Source: a virus (taxonomy: Duplodnaviria; Caudoviricetes). Taken from it: 64,000 bases of DNA. The stretch is from positions 343 through 64,342 of IMG/VR virus record IMGVR_UViG_3300033388_000803, one strand, 5' to 3'. Under the pieces are notes generated by a model, which did no database searches, was not told where the DNA came from, and saw only the letters and a list, made by a program, of their open reading frames with translations. Made by a program: the position numbers and the translations under genes. Every line of letters begins with the position of its first letter. The first letter of the stretch is position 1. Positions 3,402-60,590 of the stretch are shown here, piece by piece.

Positions 3402-4123
3402 TGGCAAAAATATCATCGTATCCAATACAGTCTGTAATAGTAGGAACTGATAAAGTTATAGGTAGTGATGCTATAAACGCCATGGCAACAAAGAATTTTA
3501 CTTTTGATGATATTGCTATATTTTTAAACACAAACAATAAAATAGAAAGTAACGCTTTAAGGTATCAATATCAAAACTGGAACACAGGAGATGTAAGAAG
3601 ATCGGGAACTATATCTTTTGCTAACTCAGGAGCAGGAACACCAGCCTTTTCTTCTTTAACAACTTTTATGTTAAGTAAGTTTATGTTAAAATCAAACATA
3701 GACATATCTTCTTATTACTCAGTGCCATTAATATCTTCAGTAGTTTTAATTTCACAAACAGATAATCCATCAAACTTTGGTGTATATGATTGGAATTCAG
3801 CAGTGCAAGATGGGGTAGAGACTGATTTTTTTGACATTGGAGTAACATTTAAAGCGGGTGCTGGTAACCTACAAAACGATAAAGATTATTTCATATCTTT
3901 GCTAACGTATGGCGGAGCAGTTTCTGGAGATAAAAACTATGTGTTTTCTCAGAATGTAGCTGCTAATCCTTGGGTAATAAATCATGGATTAAATAAGTAT
4001 CCGTCAGTATCTGTTGTTAACTCAGCGTTAGAAACAGTATACGGAGATGTAGAGTATGATAGTTTAAACCAAGTAACAATAACTTTTAACGGCCCACAAA
4101 CAGGAAAGGCCTTTTTTAACTAA
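3401..4123 (+). CDS. tail fibre adaptor/hub protein
   Basis: N-term MAKISSYP...DKVIG.D shared with 11047 fibre; C-term W.INHGLNKYPSVSVV domain. Confidence 0.7.
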   Translation: MAKISSYPIQSVIVGTDKVIGSDAINAMATKNFTFDDIAIFLNTNNKIESNALRYQYQNWNTGDVRRSGTISFANSGAGTPAFSSLTTFMLSKFMLKSNIDISSYYSVPLISSVVLISQTDNPSNFGVYDWNSAVQDGVETDFFDIGVTFKAGAGNLQNDKDYFISLLTYGGAVSGDKNYVFSQNVAANPWVINHGLNKYPSVSVVNSALETVYGDVEYDSLNQVTITFNGPQTGKAFFN

Positions 4124-49697: not shown

Positions 49698-50439
49698 ATT
49701 GATTTATATTTTCTTCTGAATCTTTACTAAAGTATGTATTGTAGATAAAGACTGCGTTTTCAACTTTCTCCTTGCCTTTTTGAATAAATTCTTCAGAAGG
49801 TTTAAAAATAGCTAACTGATATGTTGACTTGTCTATTACATAGAATTCCAGAGGCAAACCAAACAACTCTTGATATATATATGCCTGACTATCATAATTA
49901 TAACGATATGCACTTGATCTAAACTTGTTTATATCAGATGTCGTTTTTAAATCAATTAGCTTATCATAACAAACTATGTCAGCCTTGCCTTTCCAATTCA
50001 ATCCCATAATCATTTTTACCATTGGAACTTCATATTTATTTCCTACCTTGTAAATCTCATCGTACATTTCTAAATTGCATAACATTGCATCGACTAAATC
50101 TTTTAATGCTTCAACTTCATGATAAAGAAGAGACATTTTGTTGTCATTGTATGCTATATGTTCTTTGTATGCTTTTGTGTTTCGACTAGACACATCTACA
50201 ATATCAAAATCTTTTAGTTTATCTTTTTCTAAAATAGCAGTATGAAAATACCTTCCCTCTAACATTGCTTTTGTTTCAGCCTGAGGCTTTCCAAACATTC
50301 TTGGATTGTCTAGTAAGTTTTTTATATCTGAATTTGACAACCATTGCTTTCCGTACTCTCCATAATATGATGAGTCATCTTTTAGTTTCTCTGCAATTTT
50401 AGAGACAACTTTGTCGGTGTAATTAATAGGAACTATCAT
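49675..50439 (-). CDS. PD-(D/E)XK exonuclease (RecE/DUF3799-like)
   Basis: LSNSDIK, G..FH..ILE, KGKAD, DLKTT, Y.Y..QA..Y. Confidence 0.88.
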   Translation of the reverse strand: MIVPINYTDKVVSKIAEKLKDDSSYYGEYGKQWLSNSDIKNLLDNPRMFGKPQAETKAMLEGRYFHTAILEKDKLKDFDIVDVSSRNTKAYKEHIAYNDNKMSLLYHEVEALKDLVDAMLCNLEMYDEIYKVGNKYEVPMVKMIMGLNWKGKADIVCYDKLIDLKTTSDINKFRSSAYRYNYDSQAYIYQELFGLPLEFYVIDKSTYQLAIFKPSEEFIQKGKEKVENAVFIYNTYFSKDSEENINQFVLHETL

Positions 50440-50975
50440 TATTTAATGTGTTTTGAAAGTTCTTTCTTTACTGATGTCTTAATTGAATACTTTTGTTCTA
50501 AGTTGTTGACAAGCTTGTCCAAGCCTAATGCTTTGTTTTGAGCCATGTACTTTAAAACCTTATCCCAATTATCATCATCAACAACCAATTTTAATTTAGT
50601 TGTTTTTGCTGGTGCCTTTGCTTTAGTTGTTTGATTCTTAATTGCATTGGCAACTTCATCATAAGATGCTACTGAGGTGTCTAAGCCTATTCCGAAATTA
50701 CCTAATGCTCTACCCCATGCAGATGTTTCACAGTTCTCTACATAAGAATTTTTATTAATAAAGTTAGATCCACTTCTTTCTTTTGCCGTTCCTGATGCAA
50801 TTAAACGTCCCTCTTCATTTAATATGAAAGCTTTAAATGTAATAGAGTCTTCTGTAATTTGTATTACTTCTGTATCTAATGTGTACTGAGGATATACCTC
50901 TCTAAAATATTGAAGCCTTGTGTTAACTTCAACATAGTCTTTACCTTGTATGTTTACTGTTTTTAATTTTTTCAT
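50439..50975 (-). CDS. single-strand annealing protein (Sak/Rad52-like)
   Basis: IQGKDYVEV..R, ENCETSAWGRAL...GIG; adjacent to exonuclease. Confidence 0.75.
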   Translation of the reverse strand: MKKLKTVNIQGKDYVEVNTRLQYFREVYPQYTLDTEVIQITEDSITFKAFILNEEGRLIASGTAKERSGSNFINKNSYVENCETSAWGRALGNFGIGLDTSVASYDEVANAIKNQTTKAKAPAKTTKLKLVVDDDNWDKVLKYMAQNKALGLDKLVNNLEQKYSIKTSVKKELSKHIK

Positions 50976-51369
50976 TTTGATTTAGTTTAATTAGTTTTTG
51001 ACTATAATAAGAATATTTATTCATAACAAACTCCCGTTTTGTTTTTAAATTTTTAATAAACTTATCGTTTTTTCTTTGATTTACTTCTTCTTGCATTTTA
51101 ACCTTAATCATATTTAACTTTCTTACGCAGTTAGATATGGCTAATATAATGCAGCCTACATACCATCCATGAGTATAAAACATATTATATTCTTTAGATG
51201 TTATTTCTTGAAAGTAGTCTCCGTTTTTAGAACAATTTAAAATTTCTGTTTTGCTAGGATACTTACTTATTTTAACTCCAACATTAATAAAGCTAACATT
51301 AGAATTTCTTTCAATTCTCATTGATTCATCATTTGATGCTTGTGTATATATGTCGTCAATGTTATACAT
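50941..51369 (-). CDS. hypothetical protein
   Basis: 142 aa ORF in operon. Confidence 0.7.
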   Translation of the reverse strand: MYNIDDIYTQASNDESMRIERNSNVSFINVGVKISKYPSKTEILNCSKNGDYFQEITSKEYNMFYTHGWYVGCIILAISNCVRKLNMIKVKMQEEVNQRKNDKFIKNLKTKREFVMNKYSYYSQKLIKLNQNEKIKNSKHTR

Positions 51370-51655
51370 TCTTAAGTTGGCTAACTACTTCAGCATAGTC
51401 ACTGTCATTATCAACATGATCCTTTGCTATATTGTAACCATGAATTATTGTAGAGTGTGAAACTGTGTGTCCGTTCTCTTCCATAAACTTTTGTATATAT
51501 GATATTCTAATAGGACGTTCTCTTGATAAAAAGTATAGCATTTGTCTTGCGTCAACTATCTCTCTCTTCTTACTCTTAGTAAACATTTCATCCAGTGTTA
51601 AGTGAAACCTATCTGCTATTGCAGTAGCATACTTGTCAAATATTTCTCTTTTCAT
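51362..51655 (-). CDS. DnaA C-terminal (domain IV)-like HTH protein
   Basis: SKKREIVDARQMLYFLSRE...HSTIIHG, matching the DnaA DNA-binding signature. Confidence 0.8.
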   Translation of the reverse strand: MKREIFDKYATAIADRFHLTLDEMFTKSKKREIVDARQMLYFLSRERPIRISYIQKFMEENGHTVSHSTIIHGYNIAKDHVDNDSDYAEVVSQLKNV

Positions 51656-51897
51656 TTTATTTTATTTTCTTTTTTTAAATTTTTTATTTCATACTGAAGA
51701 TGGTGTATTGCTTTTTCTAAATCTTCTATATGTTTCTGTACAATACTCATTCCCTCTTCTCTCTTCTTTCCAGCCCTTAAAAGATAGGTAACTGCATTAC
51801 CTACATTATATGAACAAGAGAATCCGTAAACTACTTGTTCTGCTTCATAACCATTTTTACCTATATAATAATTAGGCTTATTTCTTATTTCTTTCAT
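51652..51897 (-). CDS. DUF3310/SaV-like protein
   Basis: P.YY, GNAV.Y..RAGKK, EDLEKA..L. Confidence 0.8.
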   Translation of the reverse strand: MKEIRNKPNYYIGKNGYEAEQVVYGFSCSYNVGNAVTYLLRAGKKREEGMSIVQKHIEDLEKAIHHLQYEIKNLKKENKIK

Positions 51898-52150
51898 ATC
51901 TATTTATAAATTCTTCTGTTAGTGTTTTATTTAATTTATACTTACTCATATCGTTTTTGACAATAACTCTTTCAGGTATGGGCATAGGATATTTACAAGC
52001 AGATACAAATCTACCTTTTATTTCTATTTTATCTGTTTCTTTAAAGAAATTATTTAGATCAATAAAATTTCTTCTATTATATATATTGTCTAATTTTATT
52101 TGTCTTTCCTTAACTAGAGACTCTACAAGATATGATGCTGATTCGTTCAT
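51878..52150 (-). CDS. hypothetical protein
   Basis: 90 aa with AT-rich leader. Confidence 0.7.
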   Translation of the reverse strand: MNESASYLVESLVKERQIKLDNIYNRRNFIDLNNFFKETDKIEIKGRFVSACKYPMPIPERVIVKNDMSKYKLNKTLTEEFINRYERNKK

Positions 52151-52167
52151 TTAATTTAATTTAATTT

Positions 52168-52306
52168 TTATAAGGAGGTAGCTAACAGTATTAACGTATT
52201 GTTGGCTTATGCCTTTTTAACTACCCCCCTATAACATAAAGAGTAAACATTTAATATTAAGGTATCTTACACCTATAAAATTATTGGGATTATTCCCACT
52301 CCTTAT
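52168..52306 (-). ncRNA. two adjacent multi-stem RNA structures with AUAA-loop hairpins
   Basis: 18-bp stem (52168-85/52217-34) with 3 G-U pairs only on minus strand; GGC-AUAA-GCC; UGGGA-AUAA-UCCCA; AGGUG/UACCU. Confidence 0.6.
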
Positions 52307-52437
52307 TTTGTTTTGTAATTGTTGATGATGATTTGCTTAAGAATTTGTTCGTTAAGCTTTTGTAACCACTGAATATATATTTTATTTGGTTTGTCCTTCA
52401 ACTTCTCTCTTAAAATTAATTCATGTACTTCCTTCAT
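52303..52437 (-). CDS. 44 aa hypothetical (not in ORF track)
   Basis: MKEVHELILREKLKDKPNKIYIQWLQKLNEQILKQIIINNYKTK*, TAATG coupling. Confidence 0.6.
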   Translation of the reverse strand: MKEVHELILREKLKDKPNKIYIQWLQKLNEQILKQIIINNYKTK

Positions 52438-52613
52438 TACCAATTAAAATTTAATGGTGTGTCTTTAAGCTGCTCTCTTTCTTTCTTCTGTCTTGTCTTA
52501 AGATTTTTCTCTCTCATCTTTTTGTACTCGCTTTTAACATACTCGCTCCAAGAATTGTAGTCTAATACTCTGTACTTGTAATTACTTAAAAATTTTCTAT
52601 AATCTTTATCCAT
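52437..52613 (-). CDS. small basic hypothetical protein
   Basis: Likely start MDKDYRKF (A-rich leader); upstream extension is structured RNA. Confidence 0.65.
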   Translation of the reverse strand: MDKDYRKFLSNYKYRVLDYNSWSEYVKSEYKKMREKNLKTRQKKEREQLKDTPLNFNW

Positions 52614-52631
52614 TTTTTTTTGTTTAAGTTT

Positions 52632-52831
52632 AAAAAAAACGAGGAAGAAACACGCCATACAGTTTCTAATTACATTGTTGATTTCGCCTAACATCAACTC
52701 GTATCTAAATAAATAAGTTGGCTTTGTTTATCCTTGTATCTACAAGTGTCTCATCCGTACATCACTATTTCAGACTGTGAATGTTCTTAGCTTGTAGAGT
52801 AGTTCAGGTATAACTTAGTTTATGTACCTGA
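52632..52831 (-). ncRNA. candidate structured small RNA / leader
   Basis: UCAGGUA/UACCUGA, UCUACAAG/CUUGUAGA, ACGAG/CUCGU junction with two GGCG-loop hairpins, U-tract. Confidence 0.5.
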
Positions 52832-52916
52832 TTTAATCATAAATACCTACCTATATTATATTTAGTTCAATTAGTGTGTAATATTACAACAAATTTTGAT
52901 TAATACCTAATGTTTT

Positions 52917-53786
52917 CTAAAAAAGTTTTGTCAAATCGTCTTCACTTCTAAGAATTGTCACTAATAATGCGTCTTCTTTGTGTTTTTCTTCAGCATAATC
53001 TTTGTTTGTGTACTCAATAACTTCTCCTGAATTCATATCGTAATCATTGTAGTCTAGCTTTTCTTTAGGAAAGTAATAGCTTACTGGACACAAGAATTCG
53101 TTAAACTCTTGTAGTTTTCTTGTATATCTATTGTATCGTTCTGTCTTTATCTTACTAGCTAATCTAAAATTCTTTATCTCTCCCCTTGTAGTTTGATTAA
53201 ACACATAAAAATTATCTACATGCTGACATTCTCTTTCGTAATGATATCTCCAAAGGTTTGTGTAATGATCTTTTTTTTCCTCTTCGGTATAATAATACTT
53301 ATCAATTACTTGCTCTTCGTACAACTGTGTGACAAGCCATAAGTTATCTAATAACTTCATTGATACTTCTTTGTTTAAGATGTGTACGTCATTTGAATTA
53401 AGAGCAGAAACTAATACACAGTCTTTACTTTTTAGTTCTGCAATTTTAACGCACAGTCTATATATTTCCCCATGCTCTTCATACCATGCTACAGAGCAGT
53501 TTTTATAATGAATTAAATATCCATTATGTTCAGTTCTTACTCTTGAAAATAGATGCCTAATATACTCTTCAGATTCAATCCAATCTATTGGCTTTACTTC
53601 TACCAATGTATTAGTGTTTATACTAACTATTGGAAACACATAATCATTTATATATTCTTGGGTATTTAAAACAAAATCAGCTAGAGAGATGTTACTGTCT
53701 ACTACTTGTACACAGTTTTTCTCTAAGCTGATGTCGTTTGAAAAATTTTTGCTACTTACTTCAGAAGATATAACAAATTGTTTCAT
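52917..53786 (-). CDS. hypothetical early protein
   Basis: 289 aa ORF. Confidence 0.75.
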   Translation of the reverse strand: MKQFVISSEVSSKNFSNDISLEKNCVQVVDSNISLADFVLNTQEYINDYVFPIVSINTNTLVEVKPIDWIESEEYIRHLFSRVRTEHNGYLIHYKNCSVAWYEEHGEIYRLCVKIAELKSKDCVLVSALNSNDVHILNKEVSMKLLDNLWLVTQLYEEQVIDKYYYTEEEKKDHYTNLWRYHYERECQHVDNFYVFNQTTRGEIKNFRLASKIKTERYNRYTRKLQEFNEFLCPVSYYFPKEKLDYNDYDMNSGEVIEYTNKDYAEEKHKEDALLVTILRSEDDLTKLF

Positions 53787-53802
53787 AAGTTTTTTTACAA
53801 AG

Positions 53803-54198
53803 TTAACTTATTATTTCTTTTATTTTTTGAATTGCTACCCATGAATCTTCGTTACCATATTCAACATTATCAATTACTTTGTTAATGTCTCTAATAGTAT
53901 AGTATCCATCATCTATTCTTACGTCAATATCCTCTTCTATATTAGCTTCAAGAACACTAACAATCCACTTTCCCTTATCTACTGCATTACATAGTTGTTG
54001 AATTTGGTCGCAATCGTCTGATGCCTCCCAACTATCTTCTTTTCCATTTCCAAGTACCCAATTTGCTAGTTCTTCTAATCCGTTTTTACTTACGAATCCG
54101 TATGTACTCATGTATCTGTCTTCAGTAATATCTATTAATTCTTCCTGAATTATTTTGTTTATTGCAAGATCTTTTTTATTCATTTTTTCTGTTTTCAT
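53803..54198 (-). CDS. acidic hypothetical early protein
   Basis: 131 aa ORF. Confidence 0.75.
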   Translation of the reverse strand: MKTEKMNKKDLAINKIIQEELIDITEDRYMSTYGFVSKNGLEELANWVLGNGKEDSWEASDDCDQIQQLCNAVDKGKWIVSVLEANIEEDIDVRIDDGYYTIRDINKVIDNVEYGNEDSWVAIQKIKEIIS

Positions 54199-54212
54199 TT
54201 TATTATTTTTAA

Positions 54213-54453
54213 TTAATTACTAATTGAGAATCTAATTGTTCCGTCCTTTACACTACGGTATCCAGCATAGACGGTTTCTTCTGTTATTTGCTCCACTTCT
54301 TTTATTATTTCATGACTACCAAAACCTAATCCTCTTGGAATAGAGTAGTGAAAATGTTCTATTCCGTTTGTAGCTTTTTGCTTTGCTATTTCAATAATAG
54401 TCCAAACTGTTTTTCTAAATTTTTTGCTGATTTTTATTTACTTTTATTTTCAT
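54213..54453 (-). pseudogene. frameshifted 79 aa gene (extra A in A6 run)
   Basis: ATG frame MKIKVNKNQQKI* stops; +1 frame continues FRKTVWTIIEIAK...FSISN* without its own start; span 241 nt. Confidence 0.55.
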
Positions 54454-54769
54454 TTAATTGTTTTTTATATTCATAATCATTTATCAATTCTTCTAAACTT
54501 CCCTCAGACAATTCTTCATAGTCTTTTGGATTAAAGGATTCGTCTCTTAAATCAAAGTTGAGATAGGTTTGTCCCCCATGCCCATCATTCCAAATAGATA
54601 CACCTTTAAAATTTGTTTTGCATTCGTATCCTAATCCTCTTCGTGTTTCGAAATAACGCACACCTTTTACTTTTAATTCAGGAGATAAGCATTCATGTTC
54701 CATAACCTCTCCCTCACTATCTAAAATATCGTAGCAACATTTGTCGCAAGTTATATACTCTTTTTTCAT
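54434..54769 (-). CDS. hypothetical early protein (CxxC...HxC)
   Basis: Likely start MKKEYITCDKC; NDGHGG motif. Confidence 0.7.
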   Translation of the reverse strand: MKKEYITCDKCCYDILDSEGEVMEHECLSPELKVKGVRYFETRRGLGYECKTNFKGVSIWNDGHGGQTYLNFDLRDESFNPKDYEELSEGSLEELINDYEYKKQLNENKSK

Positions 54770-54770
54770 A

Positions 54771-55274
54771 TTAATCAATATTAAATTCAACACTATCATA
54801 CTCTAGTCTTCCGTCATCTATTATCGCTTGTTCGATATCCTTATTCTCAGGAAACTCTTTTTCAATCATTTGAATGCTTATTGATTCAATCTCTAACTCA
54901 TGCCCTGAATCTAAAACTTCAAACAATCTACAGATGTATGAGTGTTTGTGAGTATAGTATCTTTTTAGTAAAGTCTTTAACAACTTGTAGTCTTCATGTT
55001 GTTGACAATCAAAGTTTTTCATCCTCAATGTAAATGAATGATAATCCCCTTGACAATATCCTGATGCAAATACACTATCAACACAATTATACTCTTCTTT
55101 GTCCCATCCTAAATAACACGCATAACTTCTTTTTGGAAGAATATGTTTATGTCTGCTGACGTCTTGCTCTATTAGTATTGGCAAGTCTTCTGTAATGTTT
55201 TGAATTAGTTCGGCATACAACTCCCAAACCATTGTATTATCATAATCGTTTTCTACTCTTATTACTTTTTTCAT
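54771..55274 (-). CDS. hypothetical early protein
   Basis: 167 aa, GYCQGD motif. Confidence 0.75.
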   Translation of the reverse strand: MKKVIRVENDYDNTMVWELYAELIQNITEDLPILIEQDVSRHKHILPKRSYACYLGWDKEEYNCVDSVFASGYCQGDYHSFTLRMKNFDCQQHEDYKLLKTLLKRYYTHKHSYICRLFEVLDSGHELEIESISIQMIEKEFPENKDIEQAIIDDGRLEYDSVEFNID

Positions 55275-55302
55275 ATTATATTATATTAATTAATAACTTC
55301 GG

Positions 55303-55333
55303 TAAATATACATTTAAATATTTAATAAACAAA
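55303..55333 (-). promoter_or_regulatory. Bacteroidota-type promoter variant TTTG-N19-TATATTTA
   Basis: Minus strand, upstream of 55274. Confidence 0.45.
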
Positions 55334-55380
55334 ATTTAAACATGTTACCTTCCTTTCGTAAAATGGGAATACTTAATACC

Positions 55381-55884
55381 TTATAAGTCTGTATATATTT
55401 TGTGTGCGTCTTTGAAGACGTATGCAGTCTTCTCTCTTCTGTATTTAAAGTCTACTGTCTCAATATGCATTATTAACATTTTTTCTTCAGGAGGATATCC
55501 TATTTCTTCTGCTGCTCTTTCAACTACAAGTCTTCCCATATCATTATCCCCATCATCTCCTTTCCACTCTAATTCTCCCTCAGCATATATGTCTTTAGTT
55601 TTACTCCACTTAATTAGTTTTTTCAAGAAGAATATTGTCCATTCTTTACCTTGATATGTTTTTTCATATCCCATACATCTGAATACTCCATAAGTTCCTG
55701 AATCATCATTATAGTTTTTAATCTCGAATCCACACCATATTGATGGAAACTCTCTTCTTTGGTCTCCGAATTCAAATTCACTGTCATGTCTCTCATCTGT
55801 TATTCCTTCCCATTCTTTTAATTCTTGTGTGGTAAACGGTCTGTTTGTTCTTAACTGTCCGTTCCAATCTGTATTGTATCCCAT
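55381..55884 (-). CDS. hypothetical early protein (MGY.T.W.G family)
   Basis: True start likely MGYNTDWNG at 55884; P..WC...., W.G.D..D.G motifs. Confidence 0.75.
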   Translation of the reverse strand: MGYNTDWNGQLRTNRPFTTQELKEWEGITDERHDSEFEFGDQRREFPSIWCGFEIKNYNDDSGTYGVFRCMGYEKTYQGKEWTIFFLKKLIKWSKTKDIYAEGELEWKGDDGDNDMGRLVVERAAEEIGYPPEEKMLIMHIETVDFKYRREKTAYVFKDAHKIYTDL

Positions 55885-55975
55885 TTGTTTAGTTTTAATT
55901 ATGACACTATTGTCTTCTACTACGAAATCCCCACTACTTTCATAGTGAGGCATCTCGCAGAACAAACAACACAAA
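55885..55975 (-). ncRNA. intergenic hairpin element E1 plus AUAG hairpin
   Basis: CUGCGAGAU-G-CCUCACUAU-GAAA-GUAGUGGGG-AUUUCGUAG-UAGA-A-GACA-AUAG-UGUC; G-U pairs give strand. Confidence 0.75.
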
Positions 55976-56182
55976 TTAACGATGTAAATCTTTTATATCT
56001 GTAATATCTATAGTTCCGTATTTCTTCTTAACTCTTTTTAATTGAGACATTGCATTTGTATACTCTTTGTACTCATCTTGAGTGCAACTTTTAAACATGC
56101 TCCTCGAGATCTTTTTGTGTATGGTTTGGTATGTGTAGTACCAATGCTGTATATTCTTTTCTAACTCTTCAAATTCTGTCAT
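55976..56182 (-). CDS. hypothetical early protein
   Basis: 68 aa. Confidence 0.7.
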   Translation of the reverse strand: MTEFEELEKNIQHWYYTYQTIHKKISRSMFKSCTQDEYKEYTNAMSQLKRVKKKYGTIDITDIKDLHR

Positions 56183-56187
56183 TTTAT

Positions 56188-56679
56188 TTATTTTAAATTA
56201 GTAATTAGTCTAAATTGATAATCGTAATCATCTACAAGAGAACAATAATATTTATCTCCATTCTCTTCTGTATCAGAATACTCTTCTAAATCTTCTCCGT
56301 ACTCTTTGTCTAGCCATTCTATTTGCTCTTCATATTGTTTCTTTGTGAGCATTGCACAATCATTTACATTGCATAGAATCATAAACGCATAAGCATCTTT
56401 TATTTCCCATACTTGATAGCTACCACAATTATCGTCATAGGCATCCCAAAAGTATCCGTCTCCATCTACTCCCTTGTCTATTTGTGCATACTCATCAGAG
56501 TATCTTGTTACATCTTTTGCGTCTCCATTAGCATTGCTCAATGCTCTTTTATATGCCCATTTGAATGCTGATTTTTTGTATGCAAATTGTTTTGTATCTA
56601 TTCCATTTTCTGAAGAATATCCATCTCCGTTCCATGTATCGATAACTATATATTTTTTAATGTTGTTTTTTAGTCTCAT
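56188..56679 (-). CDS. acidic hypothetical early protein
   Basis: 163 aa, IDTWNGDGYS motif. Confidence 0.75.
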   Translation of the reverse strand: MRLKNNIKKYIVIDTWNGDGYSSENGIDTKQFAYKKSAFKWAYKRALSNANGDAKDVTRYSDEYAQIDKGVDGDGYFWDAYDDNCGSYQVWEIKDAYAFMILCNVNDCAMLTKKQYEEQIEWLDKEYGEDLEEYSDTEENGDKYYCSLVDDYDYQFRLITNLK

Positions 56680-56918
56680 TATTGTAATTGGTTTTCGTTA
56701 ATATAATCTACTATATCATCCCATATTCCCTCTAACTTCTCTGTCACATCGTCATTGTTTAGCATCAGTTTTGCTATCTCAATGTTGTGGTATCTAGGTG
56801 TACTTCTGTCCTCTGCTTCAGGGCAATCTGTCTCCCAATAAGTCACTCCAAGAACATTGTTCTTGCTTAACTCATAACAAGTATATTTAGTTTGTGTGTA
56901 GCTGTTTGTTGTAATCAT
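56679..56918 (-). CDS. hypothetical early protein
   Basis: Likely start MITTNSY (56918); the upstream extension in the ORF track reads through the ribozyme. Confidence 0.7.
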   Translation of the reverse strand: MITTNSYTQTKYTCYELSKNNVLGVTYWETDCPEAEDRSTPRYHNIEIAKLMLNNDDVTEKLEGIWDDIVDYINENQLQ

Positions 56919-56944
56919 GTTATTTAATTTAATTGGTATCTTAT

Positions 56945-56998
56945 GATACTGACGAGCATTTCTGCTCGTTTCGGACATTGAGTCCTCATCAGAGTATC
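56945..56998 (-). ncRNA. hammerhead ribozyme, type I
   Basis: GAUACU-CUGAUGA-GGAC-ucaau-GUCC-GAA-ACGAGCA-gaaa-UGCUCGU-C^AGUAUC: complete catalytic core and three perfect stems. Confidence 0.95.
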
Positions 56999-57267
56999 TA
57001 GCTATTGTAATCCTCAAGCTGAGTCTTGAATCCCTCTAAGCATTCTAATAGTCCATGCTTGTCGTACCCCATTTTCTCTAGCCCAAAGTATGCTTTAACA
57101 CCTTTGAGAGTGTAATGTCTGTGTGGCTTTAATCCCCTTATAAACATCTTTAGTTCTGCGATAGATAATACTAGATTGTACCATCCTTTATTACCATCTC
57201 TACCATTGATGTTCATCGGCTTGTCAAAGTCCTTACCGAATTGTGTATCTCTTACTGTGTATTCCAT
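56998..57267 (-). CDS. hypothetical early protein
   Basis: 89 aa; stop codon overlaps first base of hammerhead. Confidence 0.75.
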   Translation of the reverse strand: MEYTVRDTQFGKDFDKPMNINGRDGNKGWYNLVLSIAELKMFIRGLKPHRHYTLKGVKAYFGLEKMGYDKHGLLECLEGFKTQLEDYNS

Positions 57268-57353
57268 TTGTTATTGTTTAATTATGACACTATTGTCGTC
57301 TACCTAGAAAACCCCAATGCGATGAGCATTGAGGCACTAGGAGTGAGACTAGA
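57268..57353 (-). ncRNA. intergenic hairpin element E2 plus AUAG hairpin
   Basis: CCUAG-UG-CCUCAAUGC-UCAUC-GCAUUGGGG-UUUU-CUAGG-UAGA-C-GACA-AUAG-UGUC. Confidence 0.78.
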
Positions 57354-57656
57354 TTAAGCTAGAGTGATAGCTAGATTAACTGTTCTTGATGGGGTACCGT
57401 TAATCTTTGTTGCTAGGTGTAGGTAACCACTATTACCAACAATCCATTTAGGAGAATCAGCATCTTCCTCATCGATATTGAATACCTTGTTAAGTTTAAA
57501 AACTAAATCAGATGTGTAGTCTGCTTGTATTCTTAATGCTGCTCTGTCTCCATCCCTACTACAATCGTAATCCGTTATTGATATTGAGTAAAACTTATCT
57601 AGTGTTTCAGTTGATAATACCTTGTCTAAGGTTTGGATAATTTCTATTTTTGTCAT
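57354..57656 (-). CDS. hypothetical early protein
   Basis: 100 aa. Confidence 0.75.
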   Translation of the reverse strand: MTKIEIIQTLDKVLSTETLDKFYSISITDYDCSRDGDRAALRIQADYTSDLVFKLNKVFNIDEEDADSPKWIVGNSGYLHLATKINGTPSRTVNLAITLA

Positions 57657-57744
57657 CGTTTGTTTGTTTAATTTGTGGAGGATTATTCCTCTACCTAGAA
57701 AAGCCCATAGCGATTAACTATGAGCTACTAGGAGTAAGGTAAGG
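57657..57744 (-). ncRNA. intergenic hairpin element E3 plus AUAA hairpin
   Basis: CCUAG-U-AGCUCAUAG-UUAAUCG-CUAUGGGCU-UUU-CUAGG-UA-GAGGA-AUAA-UCCUC. Confidence 0.78.
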
Positions 57745-57933
57745 TTAGATGTTATCGTAAACCATGTCTTCATGCATCAAGACTATCTTGGTTTGTAGTC
57801 CTCTCATTGCCTGAAATTCAGGAGTATTGTAGTGAATATTATCATCTCTCATATCTCTGATTCTATCTGCGATAGTCATTCTTAGTGTTTCTATCTCGTT
57901 TAACGTCCATTCGGTAGTGATTTCTCTAGTCAT
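57745..57933 (-). CDS. first early gene, hypothetical
   Basis: Likely start MTREITT downstream of promoter. Confidence 0.7.
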   Translation of the reverse strand: MTREITTEWTLNEIETLRMTIADRIRDMRDDNIHYNTPEFQAMRGLQTKIVLMHEDMVYDNI

Positions 57934-57963
57934 AATTTGTTTAATTTTTGTTTGATTTATGTG

Positions 57964-57996
57964 CAAATATATATAAATTAATTATTATAAAACAAA
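57964..57996 (-). promoter_or_regulatory. early promoter TTTG-N21-TATATTTG
   Basis: Full Bacteroidota -33/-7 consensus on minus strand. Confidence 0.8.
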
Positions 57997-58015
57997 TAAA
58001 TAGACATCTAATTTT

Positions 58016-58028
58016 TAATGTATTGATT
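58016..58028 (-). promoter_or_regulatory. IHF-like binding site
   Basis: Minus strand AATCAA-TACA-TTA = WATCAANNNNTTR. Confidence 0.45.
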
Positions 58029-58227
58029 GTCAGTCAGTTACACAGGTGTGTTTCACTGCTTTTTGTTTGCTATTTGCACACTTCGATGGGGTATAAAGAC
58101 GCAGTTCTTTGTCCCTTAAAACAATGATCATTGTATTTTATGCTCTCATATCTAGTGGAATGTGGGGTAATGTAGGGGAAAATCCCCCTGAATCTGCACA
58201 ACTATGCAGTTTGAAATGGGAACGATG

Positions 58228-58262
58228 CTGGACGCAGCCAGTACGACACTGGACGCAGCCAG
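58228..58262. repeat. 14-bp direct repeat CTGGACGCAGCCAG x2 (21-bp period)
   Basis: 58228-58241 and 58249-58262; related TGCGTCAGCCA near 58292. Confidence 0.85.
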
Positions 58263-58425
58263 ATGAAAACAAAAAGCCAAAAAAATCCGAGTGCGTCAGC
58301 CATATCTAGTACCCCCCCTAGTGAAAAAAATCGGTTTTAATTTTAAAAAAAATGCTGTGTAGTGTAGTATTATCCTCAACCTCTAAATGTCTAACAAAAA
58401 TTTATTATCTTTACAAAAAAAAGTC

Positions 58426-58641
58426 ATGGAATACAACAGTAACACTTCAGATTATGTAAATGGCCTATACGTTAAGGACGGTAGGTTAATCAATGGACGC
58501 CCAGATGGTGTGTCAGGTATTGAGGAAGCATCGATGTATAGAAAACAAATGAAGAAGCAATACAAAATAGATTGTATAGCTGATGGTATTGAGAGAGCTA
58601 AGATGCGAATGAATAATGACAGAGATATATACGAGTATTAA
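58426..58641 (+). CDS. hypothetical protein, stand-alone unit
   Basis: Likely start MEYNSN after TATCTTTA (58406-13); followed by terminator. Confidence 0.7.
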   Translation: MEYNSNTSDYVNGLYVKDGRLINGRPDGVSGIEEASMYRKQMKKQYKIDCIADGIERAKMRMNNDRDIYEY

Positions 58642-58670
58642 AGAGATCCCGTTTAGTTTGATTAGTAGTG

Positions 58671-58705
58671 AAAGAGAGAAGACATAAAGTTTTCTCTTTT
58701 TTTTT
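58671..58705 (+). terminator. intrinsic terminator
   Basis: AGAGAAGAC-ATAAA-GTTTTCTCT plus T-run. Confidence 0.7.
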
Positions 58706-58731
58706 GTAAAAGACAGGTAAAAGACAACAAA

Positions 58732-58836
58732 TGGCAGACTTATGGCAGACTTTTGGCAGACCTTATTGTTTAGATAACTTACTTTAACTTATTGATTCTC
58801 AGTTATTTATATTTATATTATTTATTTATGGCAGAC
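58732..58836. repeat. iteron-like TGGCAGAC repeats (putative origin)
   Basis: 58732, 58743, 58754 (11-bp period) and 58829; IHF-consensus at 58785-58797; AT-rich tract 58850-58910. Confidence 0.75.
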
Positions 58837-58940
58837 TTTTAGTAGTCAAAATAGAATATAATAAAAAAAATATATATAGAAAAATATATATAGCTATAAA
58901 AACAAAAAAATTCCTGTCCTTGTCATATAATAAATTTTGT

Positions 58941-58948
58941 TATATTTG
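58941..58948 (+). promoter_or_regulatory. -7 element TATATTTG of groEL operon
   Basis: TAnnTTTG 25 nt upstream of ATG. Confidence 0.7.
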
Positions 58949-58973
58949 TGTCTAATTTAATTAAATATACTTT

Positions 58974-60590
58974 ATGAAATCTCAGGGATACATACCAAAG
59001 GACTTGTCGTTTGACGATGAAGCTCGCCACAAATTAATTCAAGGAATAACTAAAATTTCAAAAGCCGTAAAGAGCACATTAGGGCCTTTAGGTAAGACTG
59101 TGCTTATAGAATCTGCCGATCATTTAAAAGGGATTACTATAACTAAAGACGGAGTTACTGTAGCACAGTCAGTATTCTTAGATGATCCAATAGAAAACCT
59201 TGCAATACAAATGATGAAGGATGCAGCTAGTCGAACGGCTAATACAGCTGGTGACGGAACAACTACAGCTATTGTATTGACAGAAGCTATTGTAATGGCA
59301 GGACAAAAGTATTTAGAAAAAGGATGCAACATAACTGAAGTTATAAAATACATTAATGACTATACTAAAGAAATTGTAAAAAGTTTAACTAAGAACTCAA
59401 AGAAAGTAACTCCAGCAAGACTATTAGACGTAGCTTGTATATCAGCTAATAATGACAAGGCGATTGGTAAGATAATTGCTGACGCTTATAATAAGGTGGG
59501 TGTAAACGGTATTGTTACTGTGGAGAACTCAATGACATCAGAAACATATGCTGAGGTTACAAACGGTATAAAGATTGCCAGAGGATACACATCTAATATG
59601 TTTATCAATAATCAAAAGAAAGATGAGTGTGTATTAGAGGGGGTTAAGATATTAGTTTGTGATGCTGAGATAAGTAGTGTGTTACAAATTGAGAATATAC
59701 TAAAACCTATTATACAAAACCAAGACAAGCTTTTAATTATAGGCCCATGTCATGGTAATGTTATTAATACCTTAGCAGCTAATGTTGTTCGTAATGGACT
59801 AAAGTTCTGTAATATTATACCACCAAACTTTGGATATAAGTCAACTGAGCTAATGAGTGATATTGCTTTTGCTGTTAATGCAAAGTTCTTTAGCGAGAAG
59901 ACTGGTGATGATTTAAGTTTAATCAGAATGGAGGACTTAGGTTATGCTGATAAAATAGTATCTAGTCTAGAGACCACTATTATATTTAAGGAAGATGAGA
60001 AACCCGAAGAAACTAACAAACGTATATTTCAACTAAAGGTACAGCAAGAAAACACCACGATAAAGCATGAGCGTGAGTTTATTAATGAGCGTATAGCTAG
60101 TTTAGCTGGAGCAATAGGATGTATATTTGTAGGAGGTAACTCTGATGTAGAGCAAAAAGAATTGTATGACAGGGTTGATGACTCAGTGTGTGCAGTAAGA
60201 TCAGCTTTAGATGAAGGTATAATTGCTGGTGGAGGACTAGCACTACTAAGAGAGTCGATTAGTTTATTAAATAAATCTAAAGTAGACAGTAAGGAAAATG
60301 AAAACTTAGCCAGGCTAATACTGTCAACTGCCTTACAAGCTCCAATAAATCAAATATGCAATAATGCTGAGATAGAAATTGAATGGATTATGGAGCACAT
60401 ATATAATAATAAACATAACTTTGGGTTTGATGTAAAGAACGAAGAGTATGGTGATATGTTTAAGATGGGAATTATAGATCCTTTAAAGGTAACCAAGAAT
60501 GCCTTGCTAAATGCAGTAAGTGTAGCTACAACTATATTAAGTACCAATGCTATTATAACCCATAAAAGACAAAGTCAAAGTGATGATTAA
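58974..60590 (+). CDS. groEL: chaperonin GroEL (phage type)
   Basis: TLGP.G, ITKDGVTVA, AGDGTTTA, ISAN, GI.AGGG, GIIDP.KV; no GGM tail. Confidence 0.97.
   Translation: MKSQGYIPKDLSFDDEARHKLIQGITKISKAVKSTLGPLGKTVLIESADHLKGITITKDGVTVAQSVFLDDPIENLAIQMMKDAASRTANTAGDGTTTAIVLTEAIVMAGQKYLEKGCNITEVIKYINDYTKEIVKSLTKNSKKVTPARLLDVACISANNDKAIGKIIADAYNKVGVNGIVTVENSMTSETYAEVTNGIKIARGYTSNMFINNQKKDECVLEGVKILVCDAEISSVLQIENILKPIIQNQDKLLIIGPCHGNVINTLAANVVRNGLKFCNIIPPNFGYKSTELMSDIAFAVNAKFFSEKTGDDLSLIRMEDLGYADKIVSSLETTIIFKEDEKPEETNKRIFQLKVQQENTTIKHEREFINERIASLAGAIGCIFVGGNSDVEQKELYDRVDDSVCAVRSALDEGIIAGGGLALLRESISLLNKSKVDSKENENLARLILSTALQAPINQICNNAEIEIEWIMEHIYNNKHNFGFDVKNEEYGDMFKMGIIDPLKVTKNALLNAVSVATTILSTNAIITHKRQSQSDD

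Follow-up and report, generated by a model that had tools for sequence, protein, structure and literature searches.

Introduction

Is the long early transcript of a phage cut into single-gene messages, and can a hammerhead ribozyme and a hairpin stand in for each other as the cutting device? Why bacteria and phages carry so many hammerheads is an open question; the cutting of operon RNA has been suggested before and was hardly tested. Type I hammerheads of phages and prophages flank genes, long transcripts were proposed to be cut by them into single-gene mRNAs, and polycistronic constructs of about 2 kilobases (kb) were cleaved in vitro by a hammerhead, as described in one report (PMC3088659). 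Here we analyzed a stretch of 64,000 nucleotides (nt), in the following called the window, from the virus record IMGVR_UViG_3300033388_000803. For its minus-strand early operon an earlier note, made from the letters alone, had proposed that a hammerhead and three covarying hairpins (E1, E2, and E3) are used interchangeably at gene junctions, each releasing a leader that begins with a small hairpin closed by an AUA(A/G) tetraloop (AUAR hairpin). E1 to E3 are copies of one RNA motif (E), which in related phages shares its place between genes with hammerheads and tRNA-like minihelices; E might be cut by a host nuclease.

Structured RNAs at the early-gene junctions

A structured RNA occupies four of the first six junctions of the operon, at the positions given in the earlier note (Table 1). 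The order is gA, E3, gB, E2, gC, hammerhead, gD, gE, gF, E1, and gG, and the remaining two junctions leave no room, as gD and gE overlap by 1 nt and gE and gF are separated by 5 nt. The common ending that had been claimed for the four elements was confirmed at all of them: in the order of the operon, hairpins of 4–5 base pairs (bp) with the sequences GAGGA-AUAA-UCCUC, GACA-AUAG-UGUC, GUAUC-AUAA-GAUAC, and GACA-AUAG-UGUC are followed by leaders of 21, 18, 17, and 18 nt, each containing AAUUAAA, and then by AUG. The junction RNAs fold with –25, –27, –20.2, and –31.3 kcal/mol (z = –5.4, –5.6, –4.0, and –6.0), and at each of the four junctions none of 200 shuffles folded as well.

Between two genes at 52148–52305 (minus strand) there is another conserved structured element, about 150 nt long. 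It carries a GGGA-AUAA-UCCC hairpin directly after the stop codon and a 14-bp stem at its end, and it was also present in four related loci (L003, L021, L035, and L038; loci are given by L numbers throughout), with both-sided change in 3 of its 24 predicted pairs.

The hammerhead ribozyme between gC and gD

Hammerheads are recognized by the core residues C3-U4-G5-A6-N7-G8-A9 and G12-A13-A14, an A15.1-U16.1 pair, and an NUH cleavage triplet. The element between gC and gD is a genuine hammerhead with a canonical core and three canonical helices. Its parts follow each other as stem I (GAUACU), CUGAUGA, stem II (GGAC/GUCC), GAAA, stem III, GUC, and stem I (AGUAUC), so that CUGAUGA and GAAA stand in the correct order and spacing. 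Stem I has 6 bp and is open, stem II has 4 bp and is closed by G-C, and stem III has 7 bp, a GAAA loop, and the A-U first pair expected for A15.1-U16.1; GUC is the NUH triplet, and the cut is predicted directly after it, between 56951 and 56950. A single match to the word pattern was found in the genome, and none in the reversed control. The GUAUC-AUAA-GAUAC hairpin and stem I have one strand in common, which serves as the 5′ arm of the former and as the 3′ strand of the latter. The two folds differ little in energy: the minimum-energy structure with stem I reached –20.2 kcal/mol and the centroid with the small hairpin –20.0 kcal/mol.

A descriptor scan of the window and nine related loci yielded 13 type I hammerheads, each at or just after a stop codon and 20–32 nt ahead of an AUG. 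The stems of these copies differ and the core is the same; preservation of the helices was judged by inspection rather than by a formal pair count, because the MAFFT alignment scrambled them. Hammerheads precede the gD orthologues in L002, L012, and L034 (proteins 38–72% identical), and in L012 and L034, where protein identity is 38–42%, their stems differ. Hammerhead-like junction elements that the descriptor missed, and that are kept outside these tallies, were seen by eye in L009 (7977–8104), L039 (8118–8241), L012 (5842–5912), and L029 (7219–7300 and 7601–7677); some of these have a type III layout and follow a terminator-like hairpin, others have a stem II that is short or mispaired.

The hammerhead taken alone is known biology. 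It agrees with the elements described by Perreault et al. (2011) in core, three-helix layout, and intergenic position near a start codon, but here it is one of three interchangeable junction devices, a kind of swapping that the available passages of that paper do not describe, and the 3′ strand of stem I doubles as an arm of the 5′ hairpin of the predicted product (PMC3088659).

E is a covarying and widespread RNA motif

The three other elements belong together, as the earlier note had held. The first model, seeded on E2 and E3, picked up E1 as well as 15 copies in relatives; its rebuilt version found 28 copies in 14 of 41 sources, all of them on the operon strand. Run over the whole window with filters off, the model gave three matches of 58.6–69 bits, the next best scoring 14.3 bits; the three copies of the window were part of the training set, and independent support comes from copies elsewhere, namely the 10 among the 28 that were outside the training set and 62 in other viral contigs. 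In the 28-copy alignment, 94.3% of the pair cells were paired compared to 70.7% after shuffling, and none of 500 shuffles reached 94.3%. Sliding the pair partners by 1–3 columns reduced pairing to 39–49%, and 11 of 15 pairs change on both sides. These values come from an alignment fitted to the model, which favors structure; the margin is large.

The median distance from the stop codon to the start of E is 15 nt. E is composed of a lower stem (P1) of 5 bp, whose outer pairs are C-G and C-G and whose 3′ strand is mostly GGUGG, and an upper stem (P2) of 10 bp with a G/C-rich base. Between the stems lies a small asymmetric internal loop with 0–7 nt on its 5′ side. The terminal loop is variable as well, with lengths of 4 to at least 14 nt. 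On the 3′ side of the internal loop UUU is kept in 27–28 of the 28 copies, and a UA right after the lower stem in 26–27. The lower stem sits beyond the U run and covaries in four of its five pairs; as only transcripts that pass the U run can form it, the read-through RNA is under selection.

To follow E beyond this phage group, a 15-letter E word, GGGGTTTTGGTGGTA, was used, which matched at least 120 viral and at least 120 bacterial loci; the first 100 of each were scanned with the model. The full motif was present in 46 of these viral loci (62 matches, 52 distinct), often two or three times per locus, and in 8 of the bacterial loci (9 matches), 5 matches in 4 loci being from Bacteroidota. In two complete relatives all copies lie within a few kb on one strand, confined to the early operon, and E is retained after the gF orthologues of L002, L003, and L021. 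The model found nothing in the Flavobacterium phage NC_062741.1 or in MW202828.1, and no cultured relative with E was found; blastn of an E copy against phage records returned one chance match. No Rfam family matched E in the window at gathering score, or in 52000–59000 at E-values up to 10. The titles and abstract openings searched in the literature contained no description of E or of its swapping with other elements; a ribozyme-discovery paper or its supplements might list similar candidates. With its 28 copies in the phage group, to which other viral contigs add at least 52 distinct ones, E is a widespread RNA motif absent from Rfam.

Hammerheads, E, and tRNA-like minihelices share one slot

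The earlier note had asked whether hammerheads and E elements replace each other in related phages. They do, and a third device, a tRNA-like minihelix, takes part as well. In the relatives the common slot consists of a stop codon, the element, an A/U-rich leader of about 25–35 nt, and AUG. The median distance to AUG was 25 nt from the hammerhead cut and 26 nt from the 3′ end of the tRNA-like element; from the end of the lower stem of E it was 35.5 nt in this phage group (GroEL set) and 25 nt in the wider pattern set. In L124 (987–1038, minus strand) the start codon of a conserved gene (MKVKFIKE...) follows the lower stem of E after 3 nt, and orthologues of this gene in L126, L108, L049, and L101 have a 16-nt leader. 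With its AUG so close to the stem, the L124 gene could hardly be translated unless the stem is removed.

Three cases of swapping at orthologous genes are clean. A protein of 223–258 amino acids (aa), 73–78% identical from residue 1, is preceded by E in L034, L036, and L059/L139 and by a type I hammerhead in L121. In the second case, a hammerhead in L003 and an E-like element in L029 are followed by genes whose proteins share 56% identity over 121 aa; in the third, E in L020 and a minihelix in L029 precede genes for proteins with 42% identity over 91 aa. In a weaker fourth case, minihelix in L006 and hammerhead in L022, the alignment is limited to the C-terminal 53 aa. Between close orthologues the type of element is usually retained, with E after gF and a hammerhead before gD. 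The 46 loci fetched by the E word alone contained 17 type I hammerheads (13 distinct), 17 of 17 on the strand of E, and in L121 seven junction elements follow each other within 4.3 kb in the order of four hammerheads, E, hammerhead, and E.

The minihelix consists of an acceptor-like stem stacked on a T arm with the T loop GUUCGAUUC and is found between genes in relatives, with none in this window. The minihelix scan gave 10 matches, which include a genuine tRNA-Met (L034) and what looks like a chance match (L030). ARAGORN called none of the minihelices a tRNA, a cloverleaf with an anticodon arm was not found in them, and Rfam recognized the T arm only, as a fragment match to tmRNA; the arm fits the T-arm consensus of tmRNA and tRNA. 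In mitochondria, polycistronic transcripts are punctuated by tRNAs, and RNase P and RNase Z cut tRNA-like structures. Like this tRNA punctuation, the relatives place an acceptor stem with a T arm exactly between two genes; unlike true tRNAs, the minihelices are truncated mimics. The cutting of operons at hammerheads, tRNAs, or hairpins is known in separate systems; that such devices replace each other at the same junctions of one phage group seems to be new.

Other tRNA-like and hairpin elements were observed at junctions of the relatives. ARAGORN found two real tRNA-Met genes in early operons, L034 4020–4095 and L020 5712–5785 (both minus strand), and only these two; the former, which Rfam reported too, adjoins an E copy at 3690–3741. 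On the minus strand of L026 (4895–4977) and L032 (1510–1592) lie tRNA-like elements about 83 nt long, in which a T arm is combined with an acceptor-like stem of 7 bp; their middle holds the hammerhead-like words CGAAAC and CUGACGAG in an order that is wrong for type I. A fourth kind of junction element comprises very G/C-rich hairpins of 6–7 bp with GNRA-like loops (e.g., GGGAGC-GGAAA-GCUCCC), preceded by AAACCA and followed, without a U run, by A/U-rich sequence and AUG. In addition, an intergenic word of roughly GAGAAAGUCUCUUAGAACG recurs inside longer hairpins (L012 1513–1602, L013 6632–6784, and L036 3807–4066; compare L034 2757–2842 and L037 4870–4953).

The AUAR hairpin

An AUAR hairpin is present at each of the four junctions of the window, as the earlier note had described; in relatives the hairpin is optional. 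It followed 12 of 28 E copies, 2 of 13 hammerheads (those of the window and of the close relative L002), 4 of 10 minihelix matches (three from near-identical loci), and 4 of 52 E copies in the wider set. It recurs after all three kinds of element on at least six stems (AGGA, GACA, UAUC, GGUA, UGCA, and GGCA) with the same loop, and in relatives the AUAA/AUAG hairpin is also followed by an AAUUAAA-type leader. The AUAR hairpin is therefore a genuine but optional add-on. The further idea that the 5′ arm of the small hairpin alternatively pairs upstream is possible for the window and is not conserved in the family: matched and mismatched flanks paired equally well (–1.66 vs. –1.68 kcal/mol, p = 0.68, 76 elements). 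A lower helix P0 between the 5′ flank and the AUAR arm, present in the E1 subgroup, was accordingly rejected as a family feature. Stem-loops at the 5′ end protect mRNA, and the AUAR hairpin may lock the cut and cap the new 5′ end; the preservation of its loop suggests a bound factor, too.

How E might work

Our favored reading, at about even odds (probability roughly 0.5), is that a host nuclease, probably RNase III, cuts at E, and that E thereby takes the role of the ribozyme. Host RNA polymerase would make the early operon as one long RNA, which would be cut at the junction modules directly after each stop codon. Between gC and gD the hammerhead would cut itself after GUC, and the downstream piece would start one base before its AUAA hairpin. 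Because this hairpin re-uses the 3′ strand of stem I it would win after the cut, which should prevent a reversal of the cleavage and cap the new 5′ end. At its three junctions E would do the same through a host endonuclease, most likely RNase III, cutting in or beside the UUU loop or the UA. After such a cut a hairpin would remain at the 3′ end of the upstream message, and the downstream message would retain a short A/U-rich leader, here after the optional AUAR hairpin. The minihelices that relatives carry in the same slot would be cut by RNase P and/or RNase Z.

That E marks a cut is argued from its swapping with the ribozyme and the minihelix and from the geometry it shares with them, and RNase III is favored because the shape of E resembles the irregular hairpins between the early genes of T7. 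In T7 (R0.3 to R1.3), and similarly in the Bacillus phage SP82, such hairpins with an internal loop are RNase III sites. E shares with them the irregular hairpin shape with an internal loop, the position between early cistrons, presumably on a host-polymerase transcript, and the presence of several similar copies per operon; the T7 cut leaves a 3′ hairpin on the upstream message, as would a cut at E. Unlike them, E is shorter (15–16 bp plus loop), has the invariant UUU and UA, occurs in Bacteroidota-type phages, and is known from sequence alone. RNase III sites of the T7 type span about two helical turns of irregular double strand with an internal loop; E has 15 conserved pairs and an internal loop of 0–7 by 3 nt, with extra flanking pairs in the window that are not kept in the family. 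As no RNase III domain was found among the proteins of the phage, cutting by this enzyme would need that of the host.

Several points weigh against nuclease cutting at E. Cleavage at E was not observed, and the cut, the enzyme, the cut site, and the role of the AUAR hairpin are what we infer. RNase III needs neither an invariant UUU nor a UA, which leaves both unexplained by this enzyme, and the lower stem of only 5–6 bp makes a short helix for it unless flanking pairs add to it; such pairs exist in the window and are not conserved across the family. The conserved G/C-rich stem base and the UUU have the look of an intrinsic terminator. The AUAR hairpin is missing after most elements of the relatives and cannot be essential. 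The candidate promoter of the operon (see below) is based on a consensus whose motif occurs in the window at chance level. Finally, the Rfam hammerhead families were not reported for 56945–56998, either at gathering score or at E-values up to 10, and RF00163 gave no match on the whole genome at E-values up to 10. Rfam also missed the hammerhead copies in seven related loci, and we read this as a limit of the 45-position hammerhead model rather than as evidence against membership.

RNA runs do not bear on this question. Four of them, from two studies, held 16–25% of the words, present as contigs of relatives 90–99% alike; RNA ends cannot be read from such contigs, and DNA may be present in the libraries, for which reason nothing on cleavage was drawn from them. 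One contig passes through E1 and ends at 56977, 27 nt past the hammerhead cut, another spans the entire hammerhead (56656–57127), and contigs covering gF end in E1 at 55956, 55949 (beside adapter sequence), and 55922, contig ends not being informative. The region 57202–57478 was without contig cover, which says nothing on the junctions.

Alternative explanations

The main rival, unlikely in our view but to be taken seriously, is that E acts as a leaky intrinsic terminator or attenuator, the upper hairpin and UUU(U) stopping part of the polymerases and producing a falling gradient of expression along the early operon, with the lower stem merely stabilizing or insulating the read-through RNA. 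Leaky terminators are a common arrangement in early regions of phages, and E resembles them in its G/C-rich hairpin with U residues following at once; its median start also places it clear of the terminating ribosome. However, the U run is just 3–4 long and is enclosed by the covarying lower stem, which a terminator does not need, the invariant UA follows, and the element occurs three times in one operon. None of the three E copies was among the seven sites of the terminator scan. A canonical terminator of this phage (49189–49216, minus strand) has a 12-pair stem, a GAAA loop, and nine U, and scored 10.4 bits with the E model. All three E copies lie inside a row of co-directional genes, 30–37 nt before an AUG, and the promoter –7 word TANNTTTG was absent from all four junctions between element and AUG; with no promoter after them, three terminators in a row would starve the downstream genes. 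E also swaps with hammerheads and tRNA-like elements, which cannot terminate transcription. As a side observation, the canonical terminator itself sits inside a minus-strand gene row, 14 nt ahead of the next AUG.

It is rather improbable that E, with or without the AUAR hairpin, is a protein binding site that is not cut, such as a translational operator, an antitermination site, or a stability element. UUU, UA, and the AUAR loop are kept while the stems vary, which is typical of hairpins recognized by proteins, and the partner could be among the early proteins without family assignment. Yet the copies in very different phages would all need the same partner, and since E swaps with a self-cleaving ribozyme and tRNA-like elements, what these devices have in common would seem to be cleavage.

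We regard it as very improbable that E is a new, minimal class of self-cleaving ribozyme, used by Bacteroidota phages interchangeably with hammerheads. Association with hammerheads reportedly led to the discovery of pistol, hatchet, and twister-sister, and E, like these a small structured RNA beside hammerheads in phage-like contexts, occupies the same slots on the same strand in many phages, is not covered by Rfam, and has the invariant unpaired bases UUU and UA.A. These conserved unpaired bases number only about 6–7, all on the 3′ side, and the variable 5′ internal loop and terminal loop are hard to fit to a precise active site. No Rfam match to twister, twister-sister, pistol, hatchet, or HDV-like ribozymes was found in the window. 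Hatchet has four stems and over a dozen conserved residues in its loops (PMC6561176). This architecture is absent from E, which is a single two-stem hairpin with few conserved unpaired bases. If E were nevertheless such a class, early operons would be a natural catalogue of ribozyme punctuation.

Least credible is that the AUAR hairpins are N4-like DNA-hairpin promoters for a virion-borne RNA polymerase, with E terminating the preceding unit: stems that vary around a kept loop at a fixed distance to AUG, and a 2508-aa protein of unassigned function encoded beside the virion genes, would fit, but the hairpin does not precede each unit and most elements of the relatives lack it, family searches with the giant protein gave no polymerase, the loops have 4 nt compared to 3 nt in N4 promoter hairpins, and the hairpin of the hammerhead module shares an arm with stem I, which is sensible only as RNA.

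Genome setting

The window is the virus record of 64,342 bases (rated complete) minus 342 bases, and is thus nearly the whole of a marine phage of the Flavobacteriia-phage type. It encodes a Cpn60-family chaperonin (58974–60590, Pfam E-value = 1e-57), a primase-like protein, a SNF2-type helicase, and a PDDEXK nuclease. By its chaperonin the closest named relatives are the uncultured podovirus MW202828 (53.5% identity) and then Flavobacterium phages (39–40%), and the host therefore is probably a member of the Flavobacteriia.

The early operon is a minus-strand row of small genes running from 57933 downwards, and PHROGs and Pfam gave no family assignment for its proteins. As judged by position, a candidate promoter with TTTG, 21 nt, and TATATTTG ends 30 nt ahead of the start codon of gA; the arrangement fits what we take to be the Bacteroidota consensus, and the motif was matched 4 times in the window compared to 4.4 expected. 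The early operon and the chaperonin gene are divergent, and the region separating them contains a locally G/C-rich stretch (58210–58260) with a direct repeat of GGCTGCGTCCAG spaced 20 nt, and L003 has a long G/C-rich repeat-like stretch at the equivalent position; the stretch of the window may be an origin or an operator. For the region 50000–58300, about a dozen DNA or unlabeled runs and two RNA runs from several studies each held 0.25–0.26 of the sampled words, and part of it seems to circulate widely in marine samples.

Table 1. Positions of the junction modules, early genes, and related elements (window coordinates unless a locus is named).
Feature	Position	Strand	Basis and remarks
gA	57933–57745	-	ORF list and sequence reading
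E3 junction module	57657–57744	-	gA/gB; R2 model match 57687–57740, 69 bits
E3 P1	57732–57728 with 57698–57694	-	sequence and fold
E3 P2	57726–57717 with 57711–57702	-	sequence and fold
E3 UUU; UA	57701–57699; 57693–57692	-	sequence
E3 AUAA hairpin; leader	57691–57678; 57677–57657	-	sequence
gB	57656–57354	-	ORF list and sequence reading
E2 junction module	57268–57353	-	gB/gC; R2 match 57296–57349, 64.5 bits
E2 P1	57341–57337 with 57307–57303	-	sequence and fold
E2 P2	57335–57326 with 57320–57311	-	sequence and fold
E2 UUU; UA	57310–57308; 57302–57301	-	sequence
E2 AUAG hairpin; leader	57297–57286; 57285–57268	-	sequence
gC	57267–56998	-	ORF list and sequence reading
Type I hammerhead	56945–56998	-	sequence, word pattern, fold
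Leader predicted to be released by the hammerhead	56919–56949	-	AUAA hairpin 56949–56936 and 17-nt leader to AUG at 56918
gD	56918–56679	-	ORF list and sequence reading
gE	56679–56188	-	1-nt overlap with gD
gF	56182–55976	-	5-nt gap after gE
E1 junction module	55885–55975	-	gF/gG; R2 match 55913–55968, 58.6 bits
E1 P1	55960–55955 with 55925–55920	-	sequence and fold
E1 P2	55951–55942 with 55937–55929	-	sequence and fold
E1 UUU; UA	55927–55925; 55919–55918	-	sequence
E1 AUAG hairpin; leader	55914–55903; 55902–55885	-	sequence
gG	55884–55381	-	ORF list and sequence reading
Candidate host-type (Bacteroidota) promoter of the early operon	57964–57996	-	TTTG, 21 nt, TATATTTG
tRNA-like minihelices, examples	L004 7901–7934; L006 1478–1519; L029 2996–3072; L032 7355–7395		
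G/C-rich hairpins with GNRA-like loops	L015 8651–8697, 8217–8269, 7581–7627; L016; L017 6251–6298; L027 8635–8683; L003 8005–8058		

Significance

Depending on the phage, the slot ahead of one and the same gene is occupied by a ribozyme, by a tRNA look-alike, or by E, which amounts to a natural swap experiment. As different devices fill this slot, the cut itself can be argued to be the selected function, which suggests modular cutting of one long message into single-gene pieces. With the E motif defined, its enzyme can be sought. If the cutting is confirmed, modules of about 50–90 nt would be ready-made operon insulators for Bacteroidota, and the early regions of phages could be annotated better.

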